DNA from: Aquifex aeolicus VF5
GTDB lineage: Bacteria; Aquificota; Aquificia; Aquificales; Aquificaceae
DNA length: 32,000 nt
Direction of reading: 5' to 3'
NCBI RefSeq assembly: GCF_000008625.1
Contig: NC_000918.1
Span: forward strand, 1,080,001 to 1,112,000
Shown: piece by piece, positions 7,020 through 30,299 of the stretch
Position numbering within the stretch: position 1 is the first letter of the stretch
Layout of the letters: every line of letters starts with the position of its first letter
Notes under the pieces: generated by a model
The model's input: the letters and a program-made list of their open reading frames with translations, nothing else
The model's database searches: none
What the model was told of the DNA's origin: nothing
Program-made: the position numbers and the translations under genes

Positions 7020-7909
7020 TAGAAGGAAGGGTGAATTACATTCTTGTAGGCTTGTTTATACTGCTCGGTTTGGGAGTTACACTCTTCGTACTTTTTTTGA
7101 TGACGGACATTATGGAAAGGGAAAAGTTCAGACCTTACCTCATTTACACAACCCAGTCGGTAGAGGGTTTAAACACCGGAGCAGCTGTTTACTACAAGGG
7201 TGTACAGGTGGGAAAGGTCAAGGAAATTAAAATTGCAAAAAATCAGGAGCTTATAAAGATAAAAGTATTGATAGATAAAGACTTTAAAGTTAGGGATGGA
7301 TTGGTTGCGACCCTCGGCGTTCAGGGTATTACGGGACTTGCTTACATAAACCTAGAGTACAAAGAAGGCTACAAACTCGGAAGAGACCCCGAGGAAAACC
7401 TTCCCGTCATACCTATGGAACCTTCCGAACTTCAAAAGTTAACTCAATCCCTTCCCGAACTTTTGAGCAAAACAGATGAACTCCTCACAAACTTAGGAAA
7501 GTTTTTCTCCGAGGAAAACGCAGAGGAAATCTCTAAAGTGCTGAAGAATACCAACAAAACCCTCAAATCTTTTGAAGAATTATCTGGAAAACTTGAGAAT
7601 ATCTCCCTAAGAGTTGAAAAACTGGTCGCTAATGCGGACAAGAAACTCGGAGAGCTGGAAGTAAAGAAATTAAACGAGGTTCTGGAAGAGTATAAAAACT
7701 TGGCGGTTGAGGTGGAAAAGTTTGTGAAAAACCTATCAAACCTCTCTGAAAAGGTGGACAGGGAAACCTTAAGAAAGTTTGAAGAATTGATAAATTCTTT
7801 GGAAAAAACCTCTGAAGAAGTTCAAAAACTCGTAAGAAAGCTTAAGAATAACCCTTCACAAATGCTTGAAATAAAGACGATAAAACCTCACGAGGTGGAG
7901 GAATGGTAA
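7007..7909 (+). CDS. mlaD: MCE-domain protein (MlaD-like) with an N-terminal TM anchor and a ~170-aa C-terminal coiled coil
   Basis: TM helix YILVGLFILLGLGVTLFVLFL and MCE core YYKGVQVGKVKEIKI...LATLGVQGITGLAYINLE, followed by long heptad-like Leu/Lys/Glu sequence to the end. The track start is GTG 7007. GTG 7016 (GTGA overlap with the mlaF stop, GGGGGAAG SD upstream) is an equally good or better start. Confidence 0.85.
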   Translation: MHTVIEGRVNYILVGLFILLGLGVTLFVLFLMTDIMEREKFRPYLIYTTQSVEGLNTGAAVYYKGVQVGKVKEIKIAKNQELIKIKVLIDKDFKVRDGLVATLGVQGITGLAYINLEYKEGYKLGRDPEENLPVIPMEPSELQKLTQSLPELLSKTDELLTNLGKFFSEENAEEISKVLKNTNKTLKSFEELSGKLENISLRVEKLVANADKKLGELEVKKLNEVLEEYKNLAVEVEKFVKNLSNLSEKVDRETLRKFEELINSLEKTSEEVQKLVRKLKNNPSQMLEIKTIKPHEVEEW

Positions 7910-8415
7910 GGCTCTTATTGATTTTTGTACTCATACTCTCCTGCGTCCCTAAGCAGGAACACCCTTTAATGCACAACTTGGAACCGAGCGGAGAGGCTGA
8001 TTTTAAGGTGATTGAACTCCGTGTTCCCGAGTATCTGGATACGGAAAGGATAATGTATAAAACTGACAAAGGATTTTACTACTTTGCAAAGAATGTATGG
8101 GTTTGTGAACTCTCCTGTGTTCTTGAAAACTACTTCAAAAAAGCCCAAGGTGGAGAAGAAAAGGTTTACCTTGAGGTTCTGGACTTTTACCCTGTGTTTA
8201 CGGGAAAGAAAGAAGGGTACGTTTACCTGAGGGCTAGAGTTGACCGAAAAAAAGAGTACGTCTACAAAATTCCCTTTAAAGTAAGGAGTTTTGAAGAAAT
8301 TATTTTAAAGATGAACGAGGCTGTGAACAGACTTCTGGAGGATGTAAACAAATACGTTCAGATAACCACGAGTTCTAAATCTATTTCGGATAGCGGCTTA
8401 CCAACTCCTCCCTGA
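7903..8415 (+). CDS. Lipoprotein, probable ABC-transport auxiliary component (DUF330 / PqiC-YmbA-like)
   Basis: Signal peptide plus lipobox MVRLLLIFVLILS-C (Cys codon 7942-7944). The size and position directly after an MCE gene are typical of the auxiliary lipoprotein family. It overlaps mlaD by 7 nt, and its last 58 nt overlap the convergent peptidase gene. Confidence 0.6.
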   Translation: MVRLLLIFVLILSCVPKQEHPLMHNLEPSGEADFKVIELRVPEYLDTERIMYKTDKGFYYFAKNVWVCELSCVLENYFKKAQGGEEKVYLEVLDFYPVFTGKKEGYVYLRARVDRKKEYVYKIPFKVRSFEEIILKMNEAVNRLLEDVNKYVQITTSSKSISDSGLPTPP

Positions 8416-12152: not shown

Positions 12153-12188
12153 AAGTTTTAATATTATTTGAACCTGGAAAGGGGAAAC

Positions 12189-12740
12189 ATGCTTGAACTC
12201 AGGAGAAAGCTCTTTCACTTTTTGTCTATACTCCTCCTTATTATTCCCGTAAAGTTCTTCCCTTTCTGGCTAAACGTTTTTCTATTTTTATCAGCCATAC
12301 TTTTAAACCTTCTGATAATTTTCAGAGTATCTCCCTTTTACAATATCTTTGAAGTTTTTATAAAACTTTTTGAAAGGGAGAAAAATCTGGAAACTCCAGG
12401 AATTCAGTCCCTGTGGGCAATTCTCGGAGTATTTATTTCTTACTTACTTTTTGGAGAAAATGCGGTTGTAGGAATTGTGGTTCTCGCCCTGGGAGACGGT
12501 TTTTCTGGACTTGTTGGATATTACTTTGGCAGAAGAAAGCTCTTTTACAACCCAAAAAAGAGTTTAGAGGGAACCTTAGCCTTTTTCACGGCGTCCTTTT
12601 TGGGACTTTTGCTTTTTACCGACTTTTGTGAAGCCTTTGTTATTTCTCTTATATGTGCAGTTCTTGAAAGTCTCCCTCTCAAACTCGACGACAACTTTTA
12701 CATTCCCGTCTTGGCGAGCTTTCTCGGAGAGGTGTTATGA
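12189..12740 (+). CDS. Small integral membrane protein of the CTP-dependent polyprenol kinase / CdsA superfamily (dolichol/phytol-kinase-like)
   Basis: N-terminal RRKLFH, five or six hydrophobic segments, and LALGDGFSGLVGYYFGRRKLFYNPKKSLEGTLAFF (a GD..A..VG..FG...KS.EG-type motif). ATG 12189 is preceded by GGAAAGGGGA. The track start at 12168 is a TTG. Confidence 0.6.
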   Translation: MLELRRKLFHFLSILLLIIPVKFFPFWLNVFLFLSAILLNLLIIFRVSPFYNIFEVFIKLFEREKNLETPGIQSLWAILGVFISYLLFGENAVVGIVVLALGDGFSGLVGYYFGRRKLFYNPKKSLEGTLAFFTASFLGLLLFTDFCEAFVISLICAVLESLPLKLDDNFYIPVLASFLGEVL

Positions 12741-13675
12741 AGAAGGCGTTAATAGTGAGGCTTTCCTCCTTAGGAGACGTAGTTTTAACGTCTGTGGTAT
12801 TTGACCCTTTGTTAAAGGCAGGTTATAAACCCTACCTTCTTACATTTAAGCCCTACGATGAAGTATTTCAGGATGACGACAGAGTAGAGGTAATACCCGT
12901 AAGTAAAGAAAACTTTTTTAAAGAAATTGAAAAAATCCCGAAGGACTTTGACCTGAAGGTGGATCTCCACGGAAACTTAAAGACCTTCTTCCTCAGACTC
13001 TTCCTCGGAGGAAAGTGGAGGAAGTATAAAAAAGAAAGCATAAGGAGGAGACTTTCCGTTTACTTTAAACACTTCAGAAAACCCTTTTTCGTCCCCGAGG
13101 CTTACGTGAAGAGCTTACAAGGGATAATTGAGGTAAAAAATCCGAGACCCTTTATAAAAGTTTCCGAAGAAAGGATAAGAGAATTTAAGGATTTATACGG
13201 AAAATACGTGGTTATAGCCCCGGGAGCGAGGTACAAAAAGAAACGTTATCCTTACTTCAAAGAACTTTCTGAACTCTTCATAAAAGAAGGGATAAACGTA
13301 GTTATAGTGGGAGACGAAAAGGATCGGGAAATCAGCAAGGATTTTCCGGGCGTAAACCTGTGCGGAAAGCTTTCTTTGATAGATGTTCTTGGAGTAATTG
13401 GAGGAGCGGAACTCTTTGTGGGAAACGACAGCGGACTCCTTCACTGTGCTAGGGCGGTAAAGACAAAGGCTATTCAGATTTACGGAGGGACTCACCCTAC
13501 TCTGGGCTTTTCCCTTTACCCCGATGAGGGGAAGGTTGTCTGCAAGTGTCTTGATTGCCAGCCGTGTGATGTGCACGGTAAAGGAGTGTGTAAAATAGGG
13601 AATTACGAATGTCTTAATATTCCTCCTATAAAAATTTTTGAGTATGCTATAAACATTTTGAATACCAAGCCGTAA
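12737..13675 (+). CDS. Glycosyltransferase family 9 (LPS heptosyltransferase-like)
   Basis: KALIVRLSSLGDVVLTSVV N-terminus, VVIAPGARYKKKRYP, LFVGNDSGLLHCARAV and a C-terminal Cys cluster. ATGA overlap with the upstream gene. Confidence 0.85.
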   Translation: MKKALIVRLSSLGDVVLTSVVFDPLLKAGYKPYLLTFKPYDEVFQDDDRVEVIPVSKENFFKEIEKIPKDFDLKVDLHGNLKTFFLRLFLGGKWRKYKKESIRRRLSVYFKHFRKPFFVPEAYVKSLQGIIEVKNPRPFIKVSEERIREFKDLYGKYVVIAPGARYKKKRYPYFKELSELFIKEGINVVIVGDEKDREISKDFPGVNLCGKLSLIDVLGVIGGAELFVGNDSGLLHCARAVKTKAIQIYGGTHPTLGFSLYPDEGKVVCKCLDCQPCDVHGKGVCKIGNYECLNIPPIKIFEYAINILNTKP

Positions 13676-13714
13676 AATTAGGAAGAAATTTATAAATAAA
13701 AGGAGGTGGGAGAC

Positions 13715-15139
13715 ATGGGAATTCTGGAAACACTTGTTTTAAAAGAAAAAATAAACGGAACGGAGAAGGCGGTAATCTTCAGGGAGCTCATAAAGAAAGA
13801 AATGGAGCTTTTAAACGATTACTGCGCTAAAAATCACCTGTTCCCCAAGGATTACAGGATTGAGTTCTGTCACCTGCACAACATAAAAAAGGTAAACATA
13901 GCGAGGCTCCTCACTATTTTAAAGTACTACGACCCGAGGTTTATAGAAATACTAATGTCAACGGACCCGAAAGTCAGAACCTTCATTCAGTACTTTATGG
14001 AATTCCTAGAAAAACACCCATACTTTGAGGATGTCCTTGAGCCCCAGAACCTCTTTGGAAACTGGGACTACATAAGGTATAAGTTAAAGATACTCTTCCC
14101 GCAACTTACCTTTGAGGAAATAGACAGGTTTAAGTTCAAAAGGAAAGAGTTTATAAACTACGTTAAGGAAAAACTGGGAGAACCTGAGGAATTAATAGAG
14201 GATAAACTGAACCTGGCAACCTGGTACGAAAGTGTACCTTACCTGGAGCTTGAAAGTGAAATGACTCCCGGTGTGCATCCCGACCCCGTAATGACTCCTG
14301 AGGAGTGGAGCTTTATCAAGAGACACATAAAGGGAAGGAAAAACATAATAATAAGGGACCCCGACACGGGCAAAGAAAAGCTCGTTTACGTAGAAGTGGA
14401 TATACCCGACGAAGAGCTAGACAAGTACTACAAAAACAGGGAAGGTTTGAAGAAACTTCTCATGGAAAGGTACAACATAGACGAGTCCGGAGCGGAGCAG
14501 ATACTAAGAAAAGCTGGTTGGGAAGCTACTGGATGGCACATAGTTCCACCCGTCCACACTGACGTTGAAGTAGTTTACCCAGAAGAAGAAAAGAAAGAAG
14601 AGAAAAAGGTTGAAGTAAAAAGAGAACCCTTTGACATAATGGAGCTTGCTAAACACATAAGGTACCTCGGCGGAAGGGAACTAGAAATGCTCAACTACTA
14701 CGAACTCGTTCACGACAAGGTTCCCGAAATTCACGAGAAACTCCACATGTTCATGAGGACAAAGAGAAGACTTCTCGGAAAGCTGTTCGGAATATACTAC
14801 ACGGTGGACCCCGTAATGGCGGAAGCCATACTCATAAACGACCCCGAAAACATAGAACTGCTAAAAAGCCTTACTATTTCAACCGGTCTCAGGGACAAGA
14901 AGTTCTCAATCTACGACAGCAGTAAGGTCTGGAACGAAATAAAGAGAAGGGTAAGATTCATATTCCCAGAGGTAAGCGAAGAAGAAATAGAGAAGTTCAA
15001 AGGAAAGAGAAGCGAGTTCGTGACTTACCTCGCCCAAAAACTCGGAAAACCCGAGGAGTACATAGACGAAAGACTCGAAAGAGCAGGTTGGCTAAGGAGT
15101 GAAGAAATTCCCGCCTTCATCAGACACGTGGGACCTTAA
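13715..15139 (+). CDS. Hypothetical protein with an internal duplication and three YjbJ/CsbD-like repeats
   Basis: AGGAGGTG lies 6 nt before ATG 13715 (the track start 13706 is a GTG inside the SD). Repeats are at nt 14063-14224, 14306-14521 and 14930-15091. See the findings. Confidence 0.7.
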
Positions 15140-16104
15140 GAGAGTTCAGCTTTTAGTATGTCGTGCATGTGCAATATGCCTATGGGCTCGTTCTCTTCGT
15201 TTACAACTATTAAAACGGTTATGTTGTGATCTTCCATCTTCCTCAGTGCTTTTAACGCCAGTTCATCCGGCTTTATCGTTTTTGGGTTTTTTGTCATAAC
15301 GTCTTTTGCCCTTGTGTTTTCAAAACTCCCTCCCCTGTTTACAAACCTTCTTAAATCCCCATCCGTTATTATCCCGACGAGTTTTCCCTCTTCATTCACA
15401 ACCGCAGTAGCTCCGAACCCTTTTGCTGTCATCTCTATTATCGCTTCCTTCATGGATGTGTCTTCCTTTACTATTGGAACCTCTTCACCTGTGTGATATA
15501 AATCCTTCACAAGTCTGAGCTTCCTTCCGAGAGCGCCCGCCGGGTGTCTCTTTGCAAAGTCCTCCTGAGAGAAACCCTTTAACTTCATAAGGGTCATCGC
15601 AATGGCGTCTCCGAGTGCAAGGGTGACAGTGGAACTCACAGTAGGTGCGAGGTTAAAAGGGCACGCTTCCCTGTCAACGGGAATTTTCAAAACTACGTCG
15701 CTGTATTTTGCCAGTGAAGATTTCTCATTTCCCGTGATACCGATAACCGGGATGTTTAACGCCTTTGCGTACTGGAGAACGTAAAGTACCTCTGTACTTT
15801 CCCCGCTGTTTGATATTGCTATAAGGGCGTCCTTTGAGTCTAGGAGTCCCATGTCGCCGTGGAGGGCTTCCGCGGGGTGGAGGAAAACAGAAGGTGTTCC
15901 CGTACTTGAAAGCGTAGAGGATATCTTTCTCGCTATATGACCGGACTTTCCTATTCCCGTAAGAATAACTTTACCTTCACAATTCCTTAAAATCTCTACA
16001 GCTTTTGAAAAATTTTCGTCAAGGGAAGAGAGGAGCCTTTCAAGTCCCTTTATCTCTTCCCTTATAACTTCCCTTGCAAACTCCAATAAGTCTTTTTCTT
16101 CCAT
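15136..16104 (-). CDS. kdsD: Arabinose-5-phosphate isomerase (KdsD/GutQ/KpsF: SIS domain + two CBS domains)
   Basis: [48 protein letters not shown], and a CBS pair at the C-terminus ([35 protein letters not shown]). Confidence 0.9.
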
Positions 16105-19249: not shown

Positions 19250-20044
19250 TTATTTGAGAATTTCGAAAGCTTCCTCAACACTTTTTCCTTCGTGGACGAT
19301 AAGGGACATAGCCCTTACCATCTTTGCAGGGTCTTTTGCCTGGAATATGTTCCTTCCTATGGAGAGACCTGCGGCTCCTGCCTGCATAGCCCCCTGCACC
19401 ATCTCAAGGACTTCCCTTTCGGACTTCATCTTCGGTCCGCCTGCGATTACCACGGGAATGGGAGAGCCTTCAATTGCGAGCTTAAAGGTTTCAGGGTCTC
19501 CCGTGTATGGAACCTTTACTATATCAGCTCCGAGCTCGGCTCCGACCCTTGCACAGTGTGCTACGACCTTTGGATCGTACTGGTTTTCTATCTTCGGACC
19601 CCTGCCGTACACCATGGCAAGTAATGGCATCTGCCACTCTTCACAAACCTTAGAAACGTAACCGAAGTCTTTTAACATTTCCCTTTCGCCTTCAGCCCCT
19701 ATGTTCACGTGTATGGAAACGGCATCCGCTCCAAGTCTGATAGCCTCTTCTACGGTACAAACAAGGACCTTATCGTTCTTTCTGGGCGACAGATCTGTGG
19801 ATGCGGAGAGGTGAACTATTAAACCTATATCCCTGCCCCTGCCTCTGTGTCCCGCTCTGACCATACCCTTGTGGAGGACTACCGCGTTTGCACCGCCTTC
19901 AGCTACCTTTTCAACGGCTTCCCTTATGTTTACTATTCCCTCTATGGGACCCGAACTGACACCGTGATCCATGGGAACTATGATCGTTTTTCTCGTTTCC
20001 CTGTTCATTATCCTTTCGAGTCTTATCTCTTTTCCTATTCCCAT
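19250..20044 (-). CDS. DhnA-type (archaeal-type) class I aldolase: fructose-bisphosphate aldolase or ADH synthase family
   Basis: [32 protein letters not shown] and [12 protein letters not shown] (Schiff-base Lys context), AGGPK and [20 protein letters not shown]. Confidence 0.85.
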
Positions 20045-20106
20045 TTTCTACCTCCGAGACCTTTAAAATAGTATCATACCGCCCTTTGTCGTTAAAATCA
20101 TGTTTA

Positions 20107-21069
20107 ATGTGGGTTTTGGGTGAACACGACGAGCCTTACAGAAAAGCGCGTGAAACAATACTAAAACTCGTAGGAAACACACCCCTCGTAAGAGTAAAAA
20201 AGTGTCTTCCAGAAGATATACCCGAGGACGTAGAAATCTGGGCAAAGTTAGAGAGTTTCAATCCCGGCGGTTCGGTAAAGGACAGACCTGCTCTCAGTAT
20301 GTTTCTGGACGCCTTAAAAAGGGGGCTTATTAAAGAGGGAAAAGTTGTAATAGACGCAACTTCCGGAAATACGGGAATAGCCCTCGCCATGGTTGGTGCA
20401 GCTCTCGGCGTTCCCGTGGAACTTGCCATGCCAGCAAACGTAAGTGAAGAGAGGAAGAAGATAATAAAAGCCTTCGGAGCGAAACTTTACCTTACCGATC
20501 CCCTTGAGGGTACCGATGGAGCTATCCTCTTTGTAAGGGAACTTGTTCAGAAGTACCCTGAAAAGTACGTGTACCTCGACCAATACAACAATCCAGCAAA
20601 CTGGAAAGCTCACTTTTACTCTACCGGTATAGAGATATGGAATCAAACTAAGGGGAGGATAACTCACTTCGTCGCAGGGATAGGAACAGGCGGAACGATA
20701 ATGGGAACGGGAAGGAGACTAAAGATTTACAACCCGAATATTCAAGTAATAGGAGTCCAGCCTGCGTATCCTTTTCACGGAATAGAAGGTTTAAAACACA
20801 TAGAGAGTTCAATAAAGCCGGGAATATTTGACGAGACCTTTCTGGACAGGACTATCTTCGTAGAGACGGAAGACGCCTACTACTGGGCAAGGGAGCTTGC
20901 AAAAAAGGACGCTATATTCGTAGGACAGTCATCGGGAGCGGCTCTCTGGGCATGCATTCAACTCGCAAGGGAACTTGCGAAAAAAGGTGAAAAGGGCGTA
21001 ATAGTTACCGTTTTTCCGGACGGAGGGGAGAAGTACCTCACCACGGCTCTTTTCTCTGACAAGGATTAA
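20107..21069 (+). CDS. cysM: Cysteine synthase (PLP-dependent, CysK/CysM family)
   Basis: LVGNTPLVRV, NPGGSVKDRPA (PLP Lys), TSGNTGIALA, GIGTGGTIMG and GQSSGAAL. The first ATG is 20107. The track start 20086 is a TTG, and there is no clear SD for either. Confidence 0.9.
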   Translation: MWVLGEHDEPYRKARETILKLVGNTPLVRVKKCLPEDIPEDVEIWAKLESFNPGGSVKDRPALSMFLDALKRGLIKEGKVVIDATSGNTGIALAMVGAALGVPVELAMPANVSEERKKIIKAFGAKLYLTDPLEGTDGAILFVRELVQKYPEKYVYLDQYNNPANWKAHFYSTGIEIWNQTKGRITHFVAGIGTGGTIMGTGRRLKIYNPNIQVIGVQPAYPFHGIEGLKHIESSIKPGIFDETFLDRTIFVETEDAYYWARELAKKDAIFVGQSSGAALWACIQLARELAKKGEKGVIVTVFPDGGEKYLTTALFSDKD

Positions 21070-21086
21070 TAAGTTTTTATTAGAAT
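21056..21086 (+). promoter_or_regulatory. Candidate promoter for the lapAB-like operon: -35-like CTGACA (21056-21061) and -10-like TAGAAT (21081-21086)
   Basis: The spacer is 19 nt. The -10 ends 10 nt before ATG 21097 and there is no SD, implying a very short or absent leader. Confidence 0.3.
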
Positions 21087-21096
21087 ATCCTACATT

Positions 21097-22194
21097 ATGG
21101 GGATAATAAAACTTCTCTTCGGATTCCTGTTCCTGATCTTCGCGGTAGCCTTCACTTACTACAACCTTCACATGACGGAAGTAAAGTTCTACAATTTCTC
21201 CCTCAAACTTCCCATGTTTATATTCTTTTTCCTAAGTGTTGGCATAGGGTTCTCCATACCTACAGCTTACTTTTTACTCCGTGAAAAGGCTCTGAAGAAG
21301 AGAGAAGAAAAGATTCTCCAGCTCCTTAATTTCTTCTGGAGGGATTACTTAGGGAAAGCCTTTGACCTATTGAGGAAGTTTCTCCTTATTGAAGAATTCA
21401 TGCCCTTTTACATAAGGACGAAAAAGGAATTCGGTGAAAGTCTGGACGTTCAACTCGACCTCTACAACAAGGGTATAGCGGAGACCGCTCTCGCGGAACT
21501 CACCTTCAGGAAGGATCTGGACGAGGCGAGAATTTTACTCGAAAACGCCCTCGGTAAGAACCAGAAAAACCAGAGGGCAAGGAAAATGCTGAGAAGCATC
21601 TACATGGTTCTGGAGGACTACGACAAGGCGGAGGAACTCCAGAGACAGATCCTGAAGGAAATCGAAAAAGAAAGAAAAGTTGAGGAACAAAGGGTTCTCG
21701 CTTCTATATTGGCTGAAAAGTACTCCAGAGAAAATGAAGAAGTTATTCTGAAAGAACTCTGGAGCCTCCCCGTATCCAAGACTTCGGGAGCTCTACTTTC
21801 AAGCATGGTAAACGGCGGTGAGGTTTTTGAAGCTGCCTTTAACCTTGGAATACTTCCCGAAGTTATAAAGATCATGGAGGAGAGAAATCTTCTCCAGCCC
21901 GAGCTCCTTAACTTAATTGAAAACAACTACAGGAGTGCCGTTCCCGACTACGTTCTTTATTACGTTTACTTAAAACTCAACATGAAGGAGAAACTAAAGG
22001 AATTGAACGTAACGCTTCCAGAGCTCAAACTCGTTAAAGACAAGTCTCCCGAACTTCTTGAACTTGTTGATATCTGGGAGTGTGAAGAGTGCGGAAAAGA
22101 GTACAATAAATACACGAGCGTTTGCAGGAATTGTTTGGGGGTGAATACCTTAAAAATTAAGAGGGTGGAGGAATATGATAATAGACCACTTTAA
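21097..22194 (+). CDS. LapA-like (two-TM) domain fused to a LapB/YciM-like TPR protein with a C-terminal rubredoxin-type zinc finger
   Basis: N-terminus IIKLLFGFLFLIFAVAFTYYNL...LPMFIFFFLSVGIGFSIPTAYFLL (LapA_dom-like). A helical TPR-like middle follows. The C-terminus is WECEECGKEYNKYTSVCRNCLG (CxxC...CxxC), as in LapB. Confidence 0.7.
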   Translation: MGIIKLLFGFLFLIFAVAFTYYNLHMTEVKFYNFSLKLPMFIFFFLSVGIGFSIPTAYFLLREKALKKREEKILQLLNFFWRDYLGKAFDLLRKFLLIEEFMPFYIRTKKEFGESLDVQLDLYNKGIAETALAELTFRKDLDEARILLENALGKNQKNQRARKMLRSIYMVLEDYDKAEELQRQILKEIEKERKVEEQRVLASILAEKYSRENEEVILKELWSLPVSKTSGALLSSMVNGGEVFEAAFNLGILPEVIKIMEERNLLQPELLNLIENNYRSAVPDYVLYYVYLKLNMKEKLKELNVTLPELKLVKDKSPELLELVDIWECEECGKEYNKYTSVCRNCLGVNTLKIKRVEEYDNRPL

Positions 22195-22747
22195 AAAGAC
22201 CGTTAAGTTCAAGATCGTTTACCACGGGCCCGCCCTCGCGGGCAAAACCACAAACGTCTCCCAGATAGCCAAGCTAAAGGGGGAGGACATCCTATCTTTT
22301 AACACGAAAGAGGAGAGAACCCTTGTTTTCGACATGACAAAGGAAGAGAGGAATGTCGGAGATTTTAAAGCTTCCTTCCTCATATACACAGTTCCCGGAC
22401 AGCACATCTACTCGGACATAAGGAAGATGGTAATGAGGGGCGTCGACGGTGTAGTTTTCGTAGTGGACTCTTCTGAAGGAAGACTGAAAGAAAATAAAGA
22501 GTTCATAGAAGTTTTGAGCGAAGATCTGAAACTCTACGGAAAGGAAATTGAAAGTACCCCAATTTTGCTCCAGTACAACAAGAGGGATCTTCCCCAAGCT
22601 CTGCCCGTTGAAGTTCTTCAGAAGGAGTTAAATCCTTTTAATTTTCCTTATACCGAAGCTGTAGCCTTGGAAGGCAAGGGCGTACAGGAGACCCTTGAAG
22701 AGATTATAAACCTAGTACTGGAGAACTTCGGGAGATTAATCAAATGA
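22175..22747 (+). CDS. mglA: MglA-family Ras-like small GTPase
   Basis: KIVYHGPALAGKTTN (P-loop), EERTLVFD (switch I), YTVPGQHIY (TVPGQ instead of DxxGQ, an MglA hallmark), GVDGVVFVVDS and QYNKRDLP (NKxD). SD GGTGGAGG. It overlaps the upstream gene by 20 nt. Confidence 0.85.
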   Translation: MIIDHFKKTVKFKIVYHGPALAGKTTNVSQIAKLKGEDILSFNTKEERTLVFDMTKEERNVGDFKASFLIYTVPGQHIYSDIRKMVMRGVDGVVFVVDSSEGRLKENKEFIEVLSEDLKLYGKEIESTPILLQYNKRDLPQALPVEVLQKELNPFNFPYTEAVALEGKGVQETLEEIINLVLENFGRLIK

Positions 22748-24126
22748 TAAGCGGGGATTTAAAAGGTCCGGGAGACTTGCTAGAAATACTGTCCGGTTTC
22801 CCCGCATCCAAAAGCGGTTACCTGAACCTGATAAGCAGGAACCTTTTTCTCTCTCTAAAACTCGAAAAAAGTAAGGTTAAGGGATTTTTCACAAATTACG
22901 AGGTTAAGAGTACAAAGAATCCTTTAAACGCATTAACCTTCGTACTTTCCGAAATGCTCTCCGACACGGAAGGTTACTTCTCCTTCGAGGAAAACACGGC
23001 GATAAGCGAATTCATTCCCGTGGACGAAGAACTCGAATCTCTGGTAATAAAAGCGACTATCGTAAGGAAGGAAATAGAGGAAATACTCCCCCTGATAATA
23101 ACTAGCAGTGCGGTTTTCACTTCGAAAAACGCGGAGTACAAAGATAGATCCCTCTTTGAAATCCTTTCAAACGCAGAAGATCCAATAGAAAAACTAAGGG
23201 AATTAAAGAATCTTCTTGAAAACGGAGAAGTAGAGGTAAAGGAACTTAAGGAAACGAGCAGTCTGGAAGAGCTGGGACTGGATTACATCCTTGAGTCCGT
23301 AGAGTACAAAAAGGTAAACCTCTTAAAGATACTGGAAGCTCTCAGAAACATGAAATTTACTGGATTTCTTGAAATAGAGGGTGACAGGAAAACGCTGTAC
23401 ACCTTCTTCAAGAAGGGAGAGATATTCGGTATTCATCCCGTGTCCGTGGAGATATTCGACTACCTCATGGAGTACTACAGTGAGTTTAAAGCGAGTATAG
23501 TTAAGTTAAAAGAGGAATTTGTAGAGACCTTTGCACAGGCTTTCATAGGAAAGCCCGTAATAGCCTCCGAGAGCAAGTACATATCCCTTGGAAAGTTGTT
23601 TTTAACTTTTTTGAGCTTGAGGGAAGAAGGCGTTTTAAAGATAATAAAAAATGGAGAAAGTTACATATTTATTTTCAGGAACGGAAAGCTCTTTTCCGCC
23701 AGAAAGACAAAGAGGTGGGAGGAAAACTGGAAGGTATTACTTCCCGACAGCCAATATACCTTTTTATACAGGGAAATATACTCTACTAACGTAAATTACC
23801 TCTTCTACGTATTTCTCTGGAATAAAATACTAAATGTAATAAAGAAACATTCCCTGAGGGATTCGGAAAACTTAGTGGTGAGAAAAACCGCCGAAATACC
23901 CTTTATTTACATGAAGAACGGCAGGATAGAAGTTTTAAAGAACTTGAACAAAAAAGAAGAAGGAGAAATTCTCAAATTCCTTCTGTTTATTACGGAAAAG
24001 GTTGTGAGCGAGATAGGAAGGGAAAAGTTTGAAAAGGAAATTGAAGAAGAACTCAAACCTTACACCGAAATCCTCAGAGTCCTGAACCTATCAACCGAGA
24101 TAAGTGCGGTAGAAGAAGCCCTATGA
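22744..24126 (+). CDS. Hypothetical 460-aa protein with three PATAN/DUF4388-like modules
   Basis: Modules lie at nt 22750-22992 (GDLKGPGDLLEILSGFPASKSGYLNL...GYFSFEE), 23311-23508 (VNLLKILEALRNMKFTGFLEIEGDRKTLYTFFKKGEIFGIH) and 23578-23703 (ISLGKLFLTFLSLREEGVLKIIKNGESYIFIFRNGKLFSA). ATGA overlaps occur at both ends. Confidence 0.6.
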   Translation: MISGDLKGPGDLLEILSGFPASKSGYLNLISRNLFLSLKLEKSKVKGFFTNYEVKSTKNPLNALTFVLSEMLSDTEGYFSFEENTAISEFIPVDEELESLVIKATIVRKEIEEILPLIITSSAVFTSKNAEYKDRSLFEILSNAEDPIEKLRELKNLLENGEVEVKELKETSSLEELGLDYILESVEYKKVNLLKILEALRNMKFTGFLEIEGDRKTLYTFFKKGEIFGIHPVSVEIFDYLMEYYSEFKASIVKLKEEFVETFAQAFIGKPVIASESKYISLGKLFLTFLSLREEGVLKIIKNGESYIFIFRNGKLFSARKTKRWEENWKVLLPDSQYTFLYREIYSTNVNYLFYVFLWNKILNVIKKHSLRDSENLVVRKTAEIPFIYMKNGRIEVLKNLNKKEEGEILKFLLFITEKVVSEIGREKFEKEIEEELKPYTEILRVLNLSTEISAVEEAL

Positions 24127-25787
24127 ATAATTACAGATGGCTCTATAACCTATCTAAACCTTACATTCTCTTATTCTTACTCTCGCTCCTCGGATCCCTT
24201 ATTCAGTCCTCTGGAGCCACGGCTTTAGCCCTGCTGGTCAAGCAGGTTGTGGATAACGTATTAATCCTCAAAAATCAGGAAGAGCTTTTAAAGTACGTTC
24301 TCCTCTTGTTCTCAAGTGCCCTAATAATACAGGTGGGCTTCTTTATCTCCTCCTTTACGCTATCTTACATATCCGAAAAGGTAATATACTCCCTCAGAAA
24401 CGAGATTTACGAAAAGCTCCTGTACGCACCCATAAACTACGTTCTCTACACGCCTTCGGGGGAGCTCATAAGCAGGATAGTGAGTGACTTAGAACAGTTA
24501 AGGCAGGTTTTTGCAGATTACATACCGAAGCTACTGAGAGAACCTTTAGTAGTTCTCGCGCTCTTCGGTGTCCTCCTCTACAGGGACCTATTCCTCACCC
24601 TTTTAATCCTCCTCTTATTTCCCGTAATGGCTCTATTTACTAAGTACTTTTCTGAGAAAAAGAAGAAACACCTCTCAAGACAGAGGGAAAAGGTTGCACT
24701 CCTGACAAGTATACTCTCGGAAACCTTGAGAGGATTTGAGAACATAAAACTCTTCCTTGCGGAAAATAGATTTATAAAGGACTTCAAAGAACTGTCTTTC
24801 AGGATTTTCAGATCCTCTGTGAAGATAAACCTTTATGTGGTGGGAAATACGGTCATTAATTACACCTTTGGTTACGCCGTAGTTTCCTTGATCCTCTTTG
24901 CTGGCGGTTACAGAATAGTAAAGGGAGACATAACCACTGGAGACTTTATTTCCTTCCTGACAGCACTCTTTATGATTCAAAAACCCTTAATGGAAACTCA
25001 GAAGGCGATAATGAACCTGAGGGGCTCAGCACCTATTTTTGAAAGGATAAGGAATCTCTTGAACGTTCCAGAAGAAAAGGACGGAAGTGAAGAGTTTGAA
25101 GGTTTGAAGGAAAGGATTGAGTTCAGAGACGTGAGCGTAAAGATTAACAGAAAGGAAATTCTCAAAAACGTAAATCTTTCAGTTTACAGAGGTTCAAAAG
25201 TCGGGATTAAAGGGCACACGGGGAGCGGAAAAAGTACTTTCGTTAAATTAATTCCAAGACTCCTTGAGTACGAAGGGGAGATTTTTGTGGACCACACGGA
25301 GCTGAGGGAGTTTAAACTCAAGAGTTTGAGGGAAAAAATAGGATTTTTGAGTCAGGAAGTTATGGTATTTCGCGGAAGCGTCAGGGAGAACCTGCTCATA
25401 GCGAAACCAGACGCTACGGAAGAAGAAATGTTAAAGGCTCTAGAGCTTGCAAAGTGTGACTTTGTTCTCAATTCACCTGAAGGGCTTGACAAGTTCTTAG
25501 AAGAGGGTGGGAAGAACCTTTCTGGCGGGGAAAAACAGAGGCTTGCCCTTGCGAGGATATTCCTCAAAAACCCGGAGATAGTTATCTTGGACGAGGCTAC
25601 ATCCGCATTGGACCCGAAAACGGAAGAAGAAGTTATATACAACCTTTATAAATTTTTAAAAGAGAAAACAATTTTCGCGGTTGCACACAGGCCCTTTATT
25701 TTTAACTTCTGCGACGTGATACTTGAGTTTGAAGGGGGGAGACTTAAAGAGTTTTCCACTTCTAAAGAAAATTCTATTAAATTATAA
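24123..25787 (+). CDS. msbA: ABC exporter half-transporter (TMD-NBD), MsbA/lipid-A-flippase-like
   Basis: Six predicted TM helices are followed by GHTGSGKST (Walker A), LSGGEKQRLALARIFL and IVILDEATSALD. The 554-aa size and TMD-NBD order are typical of type IV exporters. Substrate assignment is by family resemblance only. Confidence 0.75.
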   Translation: MNNYRWLYNLSKPYILLFLLSLLGSLIQSSGATALALLVKQVVDNVLILKNQEELLKYVLLLFSSALIIQVGFFISSFTLSYISEKVIYSLRNEIYEKLLYAPINYVLYTPSGELISRIVSDLEQLRQVFADYIPKLLREPLVVLALFGVLLYRDLFLTLLILLLFPVMALFTKYFSEKKKKHLSRQREKVALLTSILSETLRGFENIKLFLAENRFIKDFKELSFRIFRSSVKINLYVVGNTVINYTFGYAVVSLILFAGGYRIVKGDITTGDFISFLTALFMIQKPLMETQKAIMNLRGSAPIFERIRNLLNVPEEKDGSEEFEGLKERIEFRDVSVKINRKEILKNVNLSVYRGSKVGIKGHTGSGKSTFVKLIPRLLEYEGEIFVDHTELREFKLKSLREKIGFLSQEVMVFRGSVRENLLIAKPDATEEEMLKALELAKCDFVLNSPEGLDKFLEEGGKNLSGGEKQRLALARIFLKNPEIVILDEATSALDPKTEEEVIYNLYKFLKEKTIFAVAHRPFIFNFCDVILEFEGGRLKEFSTSKENSIKL

Positions 25788-25817: not shown

Positions 25818-28800
25818 ATGTGGCAGGAATACGATAGCTGCGGTGTAGGGTTCGTTTGTGATATATACGGAAGGAAGAGCCACGATATCTTAAAAAAAGG
25901 TATCCAGGCGGTTAAGAACTTAACTCACAGGGGTGCTATCGGAGGGGATGGAAAAACCGGAGACGGAGCGGGAATACTCACTGAAATCCCGGTAAAGTTC
26001 TTTATGAAAGAGTTTAAAAAGCTAGGGTACGAAGTTTCTTCTCCCGAAAACCTCGCGGTGGGAATGTTCTTCTTATACGAGCCAGTTGAAGACAAGGTAG
26101 AGGAAGCCTTCATAAGTGAAGGAATAAAGGTAATAGGCTGGAGGGAAGTTCCCGTAAACACGGACGCGGTCGGAAAGGTAGCCCTCAAGGTAATGCCTCA
26201 AATCAAACAGCTATTTCTCGATATGAAGAACATCCCCGAAGAGGAAAGGGAATTAAGACTCTTCTTCGCAAGGAGGAAAATAGAGAAGAAGTACGAGGAT
26301 AAGGTATACATCCCCTCCCTTTCTACGAGAACTATCGTTTACAAGGGAATGCTCGTAGCTCCCCAGCTTGATAACTTTTACCAGGACCTCTTAGATGAAG
26401 ACTACGAGACTTCCTTTGTTCTCTTTCACCAGAGGTACTCAACAAACACCCTTCCCAACTGGAGACTTGCCCAGCCCCTGAGGTACCTCGCACACAACGG
26501 TGAAATAAACACTATACAGGGCAACAGGAACTGGATGCTCACACTCCAGCACGAGCTTGAACACGAAATTCTAAAGGGAAGAGAAGACTTAATAAAGCCT
26601 TTAGTTTCCCACGAAGAGAGCGACTCCGCCTCTTTAGATAGAGTTTTTGAACTCCTCTGCCTCGTGGGCTACAAACCCGAACATGCCATGTACATGCTAA
26701 TTCCCCCCGCGTGGGAGGCCATTCCCGACCTTCCAGAAGAGGTCAGGGCTTTCCTCGAGTACGAGTCCTTACTTATGAAGCCCTGGGACGGTCCCGCGGC
26801 GATAGCCTTCACGGACGGTAAAGTAATAGGTGCACACCTCGACAGGAACGGTCTCAGACCCGCAAGGTACGTGATAACTGAAGAGGGTTTTATGGTTCTC
26901 GGCTCAGAAGTTGGAATGGTGGACCTCGATGATCAAAGGGTAAAGGAAAAGGGAAGACTCGGCCCTGGAGACACTATTCTCATAGAACTCGGAAAGGGAG
27001 TAATTAAGAAATCCGAAGAGATATTAAAGGAACTCGCAAATTCAAAACCCTACAAGGAGTGGCTTGACAAACATCTCCTCAGATTATCCGAAATAGAAAA
27101 CGATTACAAACTTGAAAAGCCAAAAGAAGATCCTGACAGAATAAGAAAGCTCGTAGCCTTTGGCTGGAGCGAGGAGGAGATAAAGAACCCTATCAAATAC
27201 ATGGCTGAAACCGGAAATGAAATGACCTGGGCTATGGGTGACGACACGCCCCTGCCACCCCTCTCCGAAAAGCCCCAGCTCCTCTACAGGTACTTCAAAC
27301 AGAGGTTTGCACAGGTTACAAACCCCCCCATAGACCCCATAAGAGAAAGGGCGGTAATGTCCCTCCGTATGAACCTCGGCTACAAGAGGAACTTTCTCAA
27401 AGAAACGGAAGAGCACGCAAAGAGGCTTCAGATAGACTCTCCTATACTCCTTGACTACCAGTTAAAAGCAATAGAAAACCAGAAGGAGTTTAAAGTCGTA
27501 AGGATACCCATAGCCTACCCGAAAGAGAGGAGTTACAACATAGTTGAACTTCAGGACATGGCGGGAGAGAGGAGGATATCCGAACTCATAATGGACGCCC
27601 TCTACGAGGAAATTCCCATAAATGACATGAGACTCGGTATAGAAACGCTTCAAAGGAGGGTGGAAGAAGCAGTAAGGGAAGGGGCGGACATAATAATCCT
27701 CTCCGACAGGTATATAAGCAAGTACAGGGTTGCCATTCCCGCACTCCTTGCACTTTCTGCGTGTGTGAAGCACCTCGCAAAACAGGGACTCGCTCATAAG
27801 GTGTCCTTTATAGTTGAGACAGGTGAGGCAAGGGACAGCCACCAGATAGCCTGCCTTATAGGTTACGGAGCGAGTGCGGTTTATCCTTATCTTGCTTACG
27901 AGGTGATTTACGAACTCTGCGAAAAGGGAGAGATAGAACTTCCATATGAAGAAGCGGTATTCAAATACAAGGAAGCACTGGAAAAGGGACTTCTCAAGAT
28001 AATGTCCAAGATGGGAATATCCACCCTCAACTCTTATCAGGGTGCTCAAATATTTGACAGCGTATGCCTCAATAAGGACTTTGTTGAAGAGTTCTTCACC
28101 GGAACTCCTGTAACCTTGGAAGCGGACGGACTGGAGGAGATAGAAGCCTCAACCCTTGCAAGGCACAACGCGGCATACGAAGTGGAAGAGCCAAAGCTTG
28201 ACATCGGCGGACACATGAAGGCGAGAAAGGGCGGAGAGTTCCACGCCTGGTCCCCCGAAGTTGTTCGTGCCCTTCACAAGTTCCTGAAGACTAAGGACTA
28301 TAAGGATTACAAGGAATTTTCCAGACTCGCAAACTCTCAGCACCCCACCTTCATAAGACACCTCCTTACCTACAAGAAAGGAAATCCCATACCCATAGAG
28401 GAAGTTGAACCAGTTGAAAGTATCCTCAGGCGTTTCGTGACTGGCGGTATGTCCCTGGGAGCTCTCTCCCCCGAAGCCCACGAGACTATAGCGGAAGCCT
28501 GCAACAGGCTCGGAATGAAGTCAAATTCCGGAGAGGGAGGGGAGGACCCGGAAAGATACTGGACAATAAAGAATTCAGCAATAAAGCAAGTTGCGAGCGG
28601 AAGGTTCGGAGTAACACCAACCTACCTCGCTTCCGCAAAGGACCTTGAAATCAAGATAGCCCAAGGTGCAAAGCCCGGAGAAGGCGGACAGCTTCCGGGA
28701 CATAAGGTAAACGAGTACATAGCGAAACTCAGACACTCCCAGCCCGGAGTTACCCTGATATCACCACCACCTCACCACGACATATACTCCATAGAGGATT

Positions 28801-30299
28801 TAGCTCAGCTCATTCACGACCTCAAGCAGGCTAACCCCTTTGCTAGAGTGTGCGTGAAACTCGTTGCTGAAAGGGGGGTTGGAACGATAGCCGCGGGAGT
28901 TGCAAAGGCTTACGCGGACGTAGTTCAAATAAGCGGTGCGGAAGGCGGCACGGGAGCCTCTCCTTACTCGTCTATTAAGAACGCGGGTAATTACTGGGAA
29001 ATCGGACTAACTGAAACCCAGAGAGTTTTAATGGAAAACCACCTGAGGGACAAGATAAGGGTAAGGGTGGACGGCGGCTTCAGAACCGGAAAAGACGTCG
29101 TAATAGCAGCACTCATGGGAGCTGAGGAGTTTGGTTTTGGAACAGCGGCTATGATAGCGGAAGGTTGCGTAATGGCAAGGATTTGCCACACGAACAGGTG
29201 TCCCACCGGAGTGGCAACTCAGGACCCCAACTACAGGAAAAAGTTTAAGGGCAAAGTTGAAAACGTTATGGCTTACTTCAAAGCAGTGGCACAGGAAGTG
29301 AGAGAAATCCTAGCGGAAATGGGATACAGAAGCCTTGACGAAATAATCGGAAGAACGGACCTCCTTGAAGTAGTAAGGTATGACGAGTTCCCCGGTTCCA
29401 AGAGGATAAAAGTCGAAGCTCTCCTTGAAAAGTATCCCGAAAACGAACCCAGAAGGTGCATGGTGGAGAAAAACGACAATCCCGCTCCAAACTTCAACGA
29501 CAAGATACTTGAGGATCTTCTCCCTTACATAGAAGAAGGAATTCCCGTGGAAAAGGAGTACACCATAAGGAACGTGGACAGAACGATACCTACGAAGATA
29601 AACTACTTCATCTCCCTCTTCTACGGAGATAGGGGACTACCGGAGGACACTATAAAACTCACCTTCAGGGGAACCGCAGGACAGAGCTTCGGAGCCTTCA
29701 ACCACAGGGGTGTGAGCCTTACGCTTATCGGAGACGCAAACGACTACGTAGGAAAAGGAATGTACGGCGGGAGGATTGTGATAATTCCCGACGGCGTAAA
29801 AGAAACGGATAAAAACGTTATTATGGGCAATACATGCCTTTACGGAGCCACGGGAGGAGAACTATTCGCTGCAGGTGTTGCGGGTGAGAGGTTCGCGGTA
29901 AGAAATAGCGGTGCAACGGCGGTAATAGAGGGTGCGGGTCTTCACTGCTGTGAATACATGACGGGAGGTGTTGTAGTAGTTCTCGGAAAAGTGGGCTTTA
30001 ACCTCGGAGCGGGAATGACCGGCGGACACGCCTACGTCCTTGACGATGAACTCGATAAAAAGCTCAACTACGCCTATGTTTACGCAAGAAGATTGGTGGG
30101 AGAAGAAGAAATTAAGGAGCTCAGAGAGTTAATTGAAAAACACTACGAGTACACAAAGAGCCCGAAGGCTAAGGAAATTCTGGAAAACTGGGAAGAATAC
30201 GTGAAGAAGTTCTGGAAGGTCATTCCCTTGGAGCAGTGTTCCAGAGACCCCTACGGTGATTCCGACGCTTGCGAAGTAGAGTTCCTCGGAAGGAAATAA
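25818..30299 (+). CDS. gltB: Glutamate synthase large subunit (GltB; Ntn amidotransferase + FMN/3Fe-4S + GXGXG domains)
   Basis: The N-terminus MWQEYDS-CGVGF carries the catalytic Cys codon at 25839-25841. Also LFHQRYSTNT, HNGEINT, ISPPPHHDIYSIEDLAQLI, GAEGGTGASP, CHTNRCPTGVATQDP and the C-terminal GXGXG repeats. 1493 aa. Confidence 0.97.
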   Translation: MWQEYDSCGVGFVCDIYGRKSHDILKKGIQAVKNLTHRGAIGGDGKTGDGAGILTEIPVKFFMKEFKKLGYEVSSPENLAVGMFFLYEPVEDKVEEAFISEGIKVIGWREVPVNTDAVGKVALKVMPQIKQLFLDMKNIPEEERELRLFFARRKIEKKYEDKVYIPSLSTRTIVYKGMLVAPQLDNFYQDLLDEDYETSFVLFHQRYSTNTLPNWRLAQPLRYLAHNGEINTIQGNRNWMLTLQHELEHEILKGREDLIKPLVSHEESDSASLDRVFELLCLVGYKPEHAMYMLIPPAWEAIPDLPEEVRAFLEYESLLMKPWDGPAAIAFTDGKVIGAHLDRNGLRPARYVITEEGFMVLGSEVGMVDLDDQRVKEKGRLGPGDTILIELGKGVIKKSEEILKELANSKPYKEWLDKHLLRLSEIENDYKLEKPKEDPDRIRKLVAFGWSEEEIKNPIKYMAETGNEMTWAMGDDTPLPPLSEKPQLLYRYFKQRFAQVTNPPIDPIRERAVMSLRMNLGYKRNFLKETEEHAKRLQIDSPILLDYQLKAIENQKEFKVVRIPIAYPKERSYNIVELQDMAGERRISELIMDALYEEIPINDMRLGIETLQRRVEEAVREGADIIILSDRYISKYRVAIPALLALSACVKHLAKQGLAHKVSFIVETGEARDSHQIACLIGYGASAVYPYLAYEVIYELCEKGEIELPYEEAVFKYKEALEKGLLKIMSKMGISTLNSYQGAQIFDSVCLNKDFVEEFFTGTPVTLEADGLEEIEASTLARHNAAYEVEEPKLDIGGHMKARKGGEFHAWSPEVVRALHKFLKTKDYKDYKEFSRLANSQHPTFIRHLLTYKKGNPIPIEEVEPVESILRRFVTGGMSLGALSPEAHETIAEACNRLGMKSNSGEGGEDPERYWTIKNSAIKQVASGRFGVTPTYLASAKDLEIKIAQGAKPGEGGQLPGHKVNEYIAKLRHSQPGVTLISPPPHHDIYSIEDLAQLIHDLKQANPFARVCVKLVAERGVGTIAAGVAKAYADVVQISGAEGGTGASPYSSIKNAGNYWEIGLTETQRVLMENHLRDKIRVRVDGGFRTGKDVVIAALMGAEEFGFGTAAMIAEGCVMARICHTNRCPTGVATQDPNYRKKFKGKVENVMAYFKAVAQEVREILAEMGYRSLDEIIGRTDLLEVVRYDEFPGSKRIKVEALLEKYPENEPRRCMVEKNDNPAPNFNDKILEDLLPYIEEGIPVEKEYTIRNVDRTIPTKINYFISLFYGDRGLPEDTIKLTFRGTAGQSFGAFNHRGVSLTLIGDANDYVGKGMYGGRIVIIPDGVKETDKNVIMGNTCLYGATGGELFAAGVAGERFAVRNSGATAVIEGAGLHCCEYMTGGVVVVLGKVGFNLGAGMTGGHAYVLDDELDKKLNYAYVYARRLVGEEEIKELRELIEKHYEYTKSPKAKEILENWEEYVKKFWKVIPLEQCSRDPYGDSDACEVEFLGRK

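Follow-up and report, generated by a model that had tools for sequence, protein, structure and literature searches.

Is a Ras-like GTPase switch in Aquifex aeolicus connected to the control of lipopolysaccharide (LPS)? The question is raised by a 32,000-nucleotide stretch of the A. aeolicus VF5 genome (contig NC_000918.1, positions 1,080,001 to 1,112,000 of the forward strand; hereafter the window, whose own numbering is used below). A first-pass annotation, made from the sequence, placed genes for an MglA-type GTPase and a PATAN-like protein in this window in one operon between two LPS biogenesis genes, and proposed that the switch may be wired to LPS assembly or export, or to their site in the envelope. 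MglA is the best-understood bacterial Ras-like switch, and LapB, to which the first protein of the operon was likened, is the hub of enterobacterial LPS homeostasis. We find that the evolutionary unit is not the four-gene string but a three-gene lapAB-like/mglA/PATAN cassette, which is a trait of the family Aquificaceae, and that the pair lies 'between two LPS genes' only by an accident of gene order in the genus Aquifex. The pairing of MglA with PATAN has already been catalogued; what is new is that the pair stays linked to a LapB orthologue, a linkage that, judged by comparative genomics only, goes beyond chance adjacency.

The four genes, as they appear in the list of open reading frames (ORFs), are:

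21097..22194, + strand: g1, a divergent, shortened LapA-LapB fusion, 365 amino acids
22175..22747, + strand: g2, an MglA-family Ras-like GTPase (aq_1560), 190 amino acids
22744..24126, + strand: g3, a protein of PATAN/DUF4388 repeats that ends in a helical domain, 460 amino acids
24123..25787, + strand: g4, an ABCB-type half-transporter nearest to MsbA, 554 amino acids

That these four + strand ORFs are chained by overlaps is borne out by the ORF list and by direct reading of the sequence: g1 and g2 share 20 nt (22175-22194, ATGATAATAGACCACTTTAA), and ATGA overlaps join g2 to g3 at 22744-22747 and g3 to g4 at 24123-24126. The overlapping starts and stops lend support to a possible translational coupling of g1 to g4.

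Conservation of a three-gene cassette in Aquificaceae

We surveyed gene neighbourhoods by contig look-ups for homologues of the GTPase and of g1 and by one GTDB genome scan, using hidden Markov model and BLAST scripts (the loci are cited here by L numbers). At every Aquificota locus with an MglA of the type found in the triad g1-g2-g3, g1 lies directly upstream and g3 directly downstream, where the contig reaches that far. All three genes are found in 17 distinct loci (L001-L007, L009-L015, L060, L089 and L093), and identity of the GTPase to g2 of the window drops to 43-46% among triad loci. In the 12 loci that were tabulated, the gap between g1 and g2 ranges from -32 to +1 nt and that between g2 and g3 from -14 to +9 nt; an apparent gap of -119 in L014 reflects an over-extended ORF start and was set aside. 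The triad MglAs furthermore form one clade, particular to Aquificaceae, among 90 MglAs in a neighbour-joining tree, with 30/30 bootstraps. Three cut contigs agree with the triad: in L010 and L090 g3 is truncated while g1 and g2 are present, and L033 has g2 and g3 only. The last of these is a 1243-bp contig binned as Anaerolineae, whose g2 and g3 are 98-100% identical to those of Hydrogenivirga L002, and it probably belongs to Aquificota, having reached a Chloroflexi metagenome-assembled genome (MAG) through mis-binning.

The surroundings of the cassette fall into four synteny classes:

Class A, Aquifex (the window, A. pyrophilus L001 and MAG L009): cysM>g1>g2>g3>msbA>gltB
Class B, Hydrogenivirga-like (L002, L006, L010-L013, L089, L090): lpxI< rng> bamD> rsfS> g1> g2> g3> GCD14 methyltransferase
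Class C, including Candidatus Pampinifervens (L004, L014, L015, L060): rng> bamD> rsfS> g1> g2> g3> response regulator> kinase
Class D, Thermocrinis albus (L093, in which Thal_1032 is g1): rng> bamD> rsfS> g1> g2> g3> proS

The neighbour downstream of g3 has changed three times and that upstream of g1 once, and the cassette has stayed abutted or overlapping through at least four rearrangements of its flanks, including its translocation in Aquifex. In three of the four classes g1 directly follows rsfS, and rsfS-g1 is the ancestral context; Aquifex severed this link, yet kept g1-g2-g3 together. In Hydrogenobaculum (the HY04AAS1_1150 cluster, L091 4753-7778) the order is bamD-rsfS-g1-response regulator, which is class C minus g2 and g3, and L094 similarly has g1 without the other two genes. 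The pair g2 and g3 is gained or lost together, and g1 can stand alone. Because Aquifex held g1-g2-g3 together and Hydrogenobaculum keeps g1 alone, we regard MglA/PATAN as an accessory module on a LapB orthologue.

The msbA-like gene, on the other hand, lies downstream only in the Aquifex clade. It was therefore rejected as a member of the conserved unit, and a GTPase pair set between two LPS genes is not a conserved design: the four-gene order is confined to one genus, which tells against the msbA part of the original claim. As a neighbour particular to the genus Aquifex, this gene gives no independent evidence. The order lapB-like/mglA/PATAN does recur, across Aquificaceae, but about 70 MglA loci from outside Aquificota (a pattern-selected sample) do not share it: they had no g1-like or g3-like neighbour and show MglB neighbours or C-terminal extensions instead.

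Two further observations concern the ancestral neighbourhood. An rsfS gene also directly precedes a lapB-like gene in L092 (5616-7224) and in L095 (618-2321), the latter encoding a Deltaproteobacteria-type protein with LapA_dom, tetratricopeptide repeats (TPRs) and Zn_ribbon_LapB, and further rsfS/lapB-like pairs lie at L002 6576-7999 and L091 5672-7110. The linkage, present in Aquificaceae plus unrelated lineages, looks broadly conserved, and we know of no prior description of it. In addition, the lipid A biosynthesis gene lpxI lies divergently upstream in L002 (3454-4239), L006 (3470-4255), L089 (2610-3395) and L090 (396-1181). Since lpxI thus precedes rng-bamD-rsfS-g1-g2-g3 in Hydrogenivirga-like lineages, the ancestral neighbourhood appears to have been rich in envelope genes.

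A LapB-like membrane protein

The LapA-plus-LapB architecture that the first-pass annotation gave to g1 is upheld by the domains of its homologues, by structure prediction and comparison, by intermediates found with its profile and by its position after rsfS. Three parts can be distinguished:

21097..21339, + strand: residues 1-81, a membrane hairpin of LapA_dom type, in which a short beta hairpin separates the two helices (AlphaFold2)
21349..21996, + strand: residues ~85-300, a TPR-like helical array of ~6-7 helix pairs (TPR_19, AlphaFold2, Foldseek)
22081..22134, + strand: a C-terminal four-cysteine zinc ribbon, CEECGKEYNKYTSVCRNC (C329, C332, C343 and C346)

On its own, g1 has a single Pfam match, to TPR_19 (residues 139-189). 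Of 17 aligned homologues, 10 have a LapA_dom match (best E 2.3e-11) and two a Zn_ribbon_LapB match, and the four cysteines of the ribbon do not vary across the 14-17 g1 homologues compared. The AlphaFold2 model, with a predicted local distance difference test score (pLDDT) of 84.7, has membrane helices at residues 2-22 and 40-81. When this model was compared with the PDB using Foldseek, all eight matches with E <= 0.001 were LapB (best 2.4e-5), and so was the ninth (1.2e-3); generic TPR proteins appeared only from 9e-3.

A profile search against 1.84 billion representatives indicated that g1 belongs to a small family, with 26 matches at E <= 1e-10. The profile also draws many stand-alone LapA proteins of about 100 amino acids, which align to profile positions 1-85, and it reaches full-length proteins of 413-463 amino acids having LapA_dom, TPRs and Zn_ribbon_LapB. 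For these longer relatives LapB is the best or near-best NCBIfam model, aligned across nearly the whole model length, and the Pfam Zn_ribbon_LapB domain was present in all five distant full-length relatives tested. Apart from the hairpin and the ribbon, no stretch of g1 has sequence motifs that are conserved in the family. The idea of a motif in g1 confined to lineages that also have g2 and g3 was set aside, the cytoplasmic domain being too divergent to reveal one.

In E. coli, LapB (YciM), together with LapA, is an adaptor for FtsH-dependent degradation of LpxC, and LapB has nine TPRs. With this protein g1 shares a membrane anchor, a predicted TPR array and a C-terminal four-cysteine rubredoxin-like ribbon, and the intermediates with LapA_dom, TPRs and Zn_ribbon_LapB connect the two. 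However, LapA and LapB are separate proteins in E. coli and are fused in g1, which has ~6-7 helix pairs as opposed to nine TPRs. At 18.6 bits, where the cut-off is 363, the sequence similarity is moreover marginal, and binding to LpxC, FtsH or YejM is putative. As the anchor is of the LapA_dom type, we describe g1 as a LapA-LapB fusion and not as a single-helix LapB, and since it failed the equivalog scores, we call it LapB-like and not a verified functional LapB. It is LapB-like in architecture and probably orthologous to LapB: a fused LapA-LapB of Aquificaceae, with a hairpin for the inner membrane, TPRs predicted to face the cytoplasm, a zinc ribbon like that of rubredoxin and only a putative ability to bind LpxC or FtsH.

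An MglA-family GTPase without MglB

The assignment of g2 to the MglA family likewise stands, both on its nearest solved relative and on hallmark motifs. That relative is MglA of Thermus thermophilus (3T12, E 6.4e-47 over residues 5-183, an alignment that takes in the bacterial G1-G2 insertion), and the best Arf match has an E value of 2.9e-6. In addition to an NKRD motif, g2 carries:

22226..22252, + strand: the P-loop GPALAGKTT, with Ala at the position of Ras G12 and of Myxococcus MglA G21
22316-22318, + strand: the intrinsic arginine R48
22388..22402, + strand: the G3 motif TVPGQ (residues 72-76), with the catalytic glutamine Q76

We take R48 and Q76 to be the equivalents of R53 and Q82 in Myxococcus MglA. 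Among the 18 triad-clade MglAs, the intrinsic arginine position is R in 14, H in two and K in two, compared with R in 71 of 72 other sampled MglAs, and the Thr of the G3 motif is present in all 18. Such a Thr in place of the Ras Asp (TxxGQ, not DxxGQ) is an MglA hallmark according to PMC3000849.

The P-loop has Ala in 61/61 homologues of the Aquificota-type clade and Gly in 51/58 other MglA matches. The non-Aquificota MglA loci of the GTDB scan were picked by a pattern requiring Ala in the P-loop, which biases the residues called specific to the triad clade. In Myxococcus MglA, the substitution G21V reportedly gives a GTP-locked form. We rejected the P-loop Ala as a feature unique to the triad clade, since Ala-type MglAs with MglB neighbours occur in other phyla, and for the same reason we do not claim that g2 is GTP-locked.

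The closest known system is the MglA/MglB polarity module of M. xanthus and T. thermophilus, which g2 resembles in its full-length alignment, TVPGQ, R48, Q76, NKRD and group 1 membership. The triad loci differ from it in three respects. An MglB-seeded search of L001-L015 and L060 found no MglB at triad loci, and the annotations of L089, L090 and L093 include none, so that the loci searched have no Roadblock/MglB gene; the same search showed that MglB adjoins many non-Aquificota MglAs. (Group 1 typically has an MglB gene next to mglA, though this is no requirement.) The P-loop has Gly in Thermus and Myxococcus MglA and Ala in the g2 clade. Finally, the fixed upstream partner of g2 is a LapB-like membrane protein, which is unreported for any MglA.

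A PATAN protein encoded after mglA

The description of g3 as a protein made of PATAN/DUF4388 modules proved correct for one clear module, while the other copies are weaker. Two stretches can be placed on the sequence:

23311..23472, + strand: residues 190-243, a clear DUF4388/PATAN module (Pfam)
23581..23700, + strand: residues 280-319, a weaker second copy of the helix plus three-strand unit

The first matches Pfam PF14332 (DUF4388/PatA_N) with 43.1 bits against a cut-off of 25 (E 5.1e-11, profile positions 6-58/122). Residues 280-319 align with residues 191-230 in hhalign with a probability of 81% (E 1.2e-5), and match Pfam DUF4388 in register with an E value of 0.013. In the AlphaFold2 model (pLDDT 76.7) the helix plus three-strand unit is seen three times, with the N-terminal copy weakly backed by secondary structure and an hhalign E value of 5.7e-3. 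A Foldseek search of the model against the PDB found no resembling structure, giving sliding-clamp matches only (probability <0.2, TM ~0.1). We also considered g3 as a cryptic Roadblock/MglB-like GTPase-activating protein and rejected this, because all modules had an hhalign probability of at most 1.2% against an MglB profile built from 32 locus matches plus the L008 seed.

Pairs of MglA and PATAN genes were described by Makarova et al. 2006, as that work is cited in PMC4316618 and bioRxiv 10.1101/2021.06.11.447907, and g3 is likewise encoded directly after mglA. The catalogue of Wuichet and Sogaard-Andersen 2014 (PMC4316618, Table S2) lists aq_1560 as 'MglA Group 1, MglA>PATAN>', with 190 amino acids, and enters the Hydrogenobacter thermophilus pair as 'MglA>PATAN>' too. 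The pairs of Chloroflexi, of Chlorobi and of aq_1844 include MglB, in contrast to the A. aeolicus g2-g3 pair, which is without it (PMC4316618). In contrast to such pairs, g3 also lacks a receiver domain, consisting of up to three helix plus three-strand copies and a C-terminal helical domain. The claim that the link is undescribed must thus be divided: the MglA-PATAN pairing is in PMC4316618, but the link to LapB appears undescribed, since our literature search found no paper naming both LapB/YciM and MglA. Literature searches on PATAN and Aquifex likewise found no description of an MglA/PATAN-LapB link.

The transporter and the extent of the run

The domains of g4 (ABC_membrane plus ABC_tran) are those of a half-transporter, the architecture of the lipid A-core flippase MsbA, and its best NCBIfam model is MsbA (TIGR02203, 350.6 bits), about 80 bits ahead of the next families at ~270. 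This score is, however, below the equivalog cut-off of 602, and against NF008381 g4 reaches 271.7 bits with a cut-off of 867; among PDB sequences, MsbA, TM288 and Sav1866 score alike at ~250 bits. The label 'MsbA-type exporter' is apt as regards MsbA-like domains and best model, but not at equivalog level. We describe g4 as an ABCB-type half-transporter with MsbA as its nearest family and regard orthology to MsbA as putative; it also differs from the flippase in question in that its adjacency to the cassette is limited to the Aquifex clade.

Nor do the four genes form a self-contained unit. They belong to a longer co-directional run, cysM-g1-g2-g3-g4-gltB-MFS, with gaps of 27, -20, -4, -4, 30 and -31 nt. 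Its additional members and the proposed promoter region are:

20086..21069, + strand: upstream cysM/cysK-like gene with a PALP domain (ORF list; PALP annotation of the A. pyrophilus orthologue)
21056..21096, + strand: end of cysM and the 27-bp spacer, with a proposed -35/-10 pair (sequence reading)
25818..30299, + strand: gltB (large subunit of glutamate synthase), separated from g4 by 30 bp and having a Shine-Dalgarno-like site GGGGTGG

The position of cysM upstream of g1 is conserved only in the Aquifex clade. The 27-bp spacer after the cysM stop (21069) is real, but a consensus scan did not bear out a -35/-10-like pair of its own. The candidate promoter was rejected, as CTGACA (21056-21061) lies inside cysM and the best -10-like element, TAGAAT (21081-21086), is 19 nt away; the scan called no site in the cysM/g1 spacer. 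Between 19900 and 26200 there was no excess of promoter-like sites (6, versus 6.8 expected from shuffled sequence) or of terminator-like sites (9, versus 7.5). The best promoter-like site of the region, CTGACA and TATGAT spaced by 17 nt with 10/12 matches, is at 19956-19984, upstream of cysM, and the g1-g4 transcript may therefore begin there. That transcript may also take in cysM and gltB.

A possible mechanism and its alternatives

The reading that we favour is that g1, g2 and g3 make up a physical and functional module. In its boldest form, MglA, with a PATAN co-regulator that is independent of MglB, would bind the TPR array of g1 directly and thereby gate or position LapB-dependent lipid A control in Aquificaceae. 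In the favoured scheme g2 would cycle between its GDP and GTP forms, and g2-GTP would dock on the TPRs that g1 anchors in the membrane, in the way that TPR effectors such as SgmX receive MglA-GTP in Myxococcus. The PATAN protein g3 would be a co-regulator or adaptor in place of MglB, and the output would be a modulated LapB-type function of g1, either in the control of lipid A/LPS synthesis or in where in the envelope it takes place. We advance the scheme tentatively. That such a module exists falls a little short of probable; that it has a role in LPS control is unlikely, and the boldest form is doubtful to a similar degree. Of the original proposal of a GTPase switch wired to LPS assembly or export, the link to the lapB-like gene is strengthened by the triad in four flank contexts, and the link to msbA is not upheld.

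There are partial precedents for both halves of the scheme. In Bdellovibrio, the TPR protein Bd2492 is an effector of MglA-GTP. MglA-GTP acts through the TPR protein SgmX in M. xanthus, according to PMC7519303 and PMC7668184, which is comparable to g2-g1 in pairing a small MglA GTPase with a TPR protein as a likely binding platform. Whereas SgmX is soluble and regulates type IV pili from the pole, g1 is an integral membrane protein of LapB type, in a cassette without a linked pilus gene. As regards lipid A, PMC11549432 reports that the GTPase ObgE helps to regulate E. coli LPS synthesis by binding LpxA, and this offers a precedent for GTPase input into the control of lipid A synthesis. ObgE differs from g2 in belonging to the Obg family, in having LpxA as its target and in having no gene linkage to lapB.

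Several points weigh against the favoured scheme. To our knowledge, all characterised MglA outputs are in motility, polarity or predation. It is gene context only that makes a functional link to LPS control plausible, and we know of no description of such a link. Since Hydrogenobaculum and L094 have g1 but neither g2 nor g3, g1 works alone, and the link may be a tolerated insertion site in an operon. The resemblance of g1 to LapB is also limited, with TM-scores of 0.26-0.43 and a shorter TPR array, and with a best score against the NCBIfam LapB models (18.6 bits, NF008757) that lies below cut-offs of 363-430. Across Aquificaceae clades g1 has 26-29% identity, and thus diverges faster than g2 or BamD (~50%). 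The non-Aquificota MglA set is a biased sample, since its loci had to match a DNA pattern that calls for 'G[IP]A' in the P-loop. Finally, A. aeolicus has a second MglA elsewhere, aq_1844 of group 5, with PATAN and MglB (PMC4316618).

The main rival explanation is that MglA/PATAN serves type IV pili or flagella as a switch of polarity or motility, of the kind in which MglA acts in Myxococcus, Thermus and cyanobacteria, and that it merely shares a transcript with the lapB-like gene and involves neither g1 nor LPS. PATAN domains bind PilB1 and PilC in Synechocystis and are localised at the inner membrane, and MglA/MglB homologues are regularly encoded near PATAN genes. The occurrence of g1 without its partners in Hydrogenobaculum and L094 would fit as well, as would a pilC gene after the lapB-like gene of L092 and flagellar genes ~4-8 kb upstream of the cassette in L006. 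Yet none of the four synteny classes has a pilus or flagellar gene consistently beside the cassette. In Aquifex, g1, g2 and g3 relocated together though the much older rsfS-g1 link broke, and junctions of -32 to +9 nt were kept where the flanking genes were replaced. We consider this explanation possible, if somewhat unlikely.

The same genomic data bear on two other alternatives. If g1, its LapB architecture kept, had been recruited as a membrane landmark or anchor for the GTPase, replacing partners of the RomR or MglB type, the three proteins would make a membrane-bound switch with an output unrelated to LPS. The rapid evolution of g1 relative to g2 and BamD, its short TPR array, its failure on the LapB equivalog scores and the lack of conserved motifs beyond hairpin and ribbon would suit such a role, but g1 orthologues of the same architecture stand after rsfS without the GTPase in Hydrogenobaculum and L094, as do distant lapB-like genes in L092 and L095. 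These GTPase-less genes thus argue for a retained ancestral function that is independent of the GTPase, and LapB is still the best fold match of g1, so we think recruitment as an anchor quite improbable. Alternatively, the adjacency could have no functional meaning and be a by-product of packing in the small, operon-scrambled genomes of Aquificaceae. The overlapping co-directional run does include the unrelated cysM, gltB and MFS genes, and that Aquifex operons mix functions was a caveat of the first-pass annotation itself. Scrambled genomes are, however, where unselected linkages decay, and here the downstream neighbour changed three times and the upstream neighbour once while the g1-g2-g3 junctions remained unopened in 17 loci, which makes meaningless packing a very unlikely explanation.

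Other genes in the window

Elsewhere in the window, overlap-chained mlaE-, mlaF- and mlaD-like genes (outer-membrane lipid asymmetry) occupy 5257-7909. A heptosyltransferase-like, LPS-related family 9 glycosyltransferase is encoded at 12737-13675, and its start is overlapped by an ORF of 190 amino acids (12168-12740). At 15136-16104, on the - strand, lies an LPS-related gene for a protein with SIS and CBS domains that is KdsD/arabinose-5-phosphate isomerase-like. No Pfam match at E <= 1e-5 was found for the 190-amino-acid ORF or for those at 1963-2547 (194 amino acids), 7903-8415 (170) and 13706-15139 (477).

Implications

The question raised at the outset thus has a corrected form, in which lapB, not msbA, is the linked gene, and in which the link is a family-level trait of Aquificaceae and not a widespread design. 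If the boldest form of the scheme is true, a small GTPase would for the first time be seen to feed into LPS homeostasis, and MglA to have an output beyond motility and polarity. A cassette that has survived genome scrambling offers a testable hypothesis on the outputs of MglA and on LapB-like regulation in deep-branching diderms, and the proteins of A. aeolicus, being thermostable, are suited to structural work.

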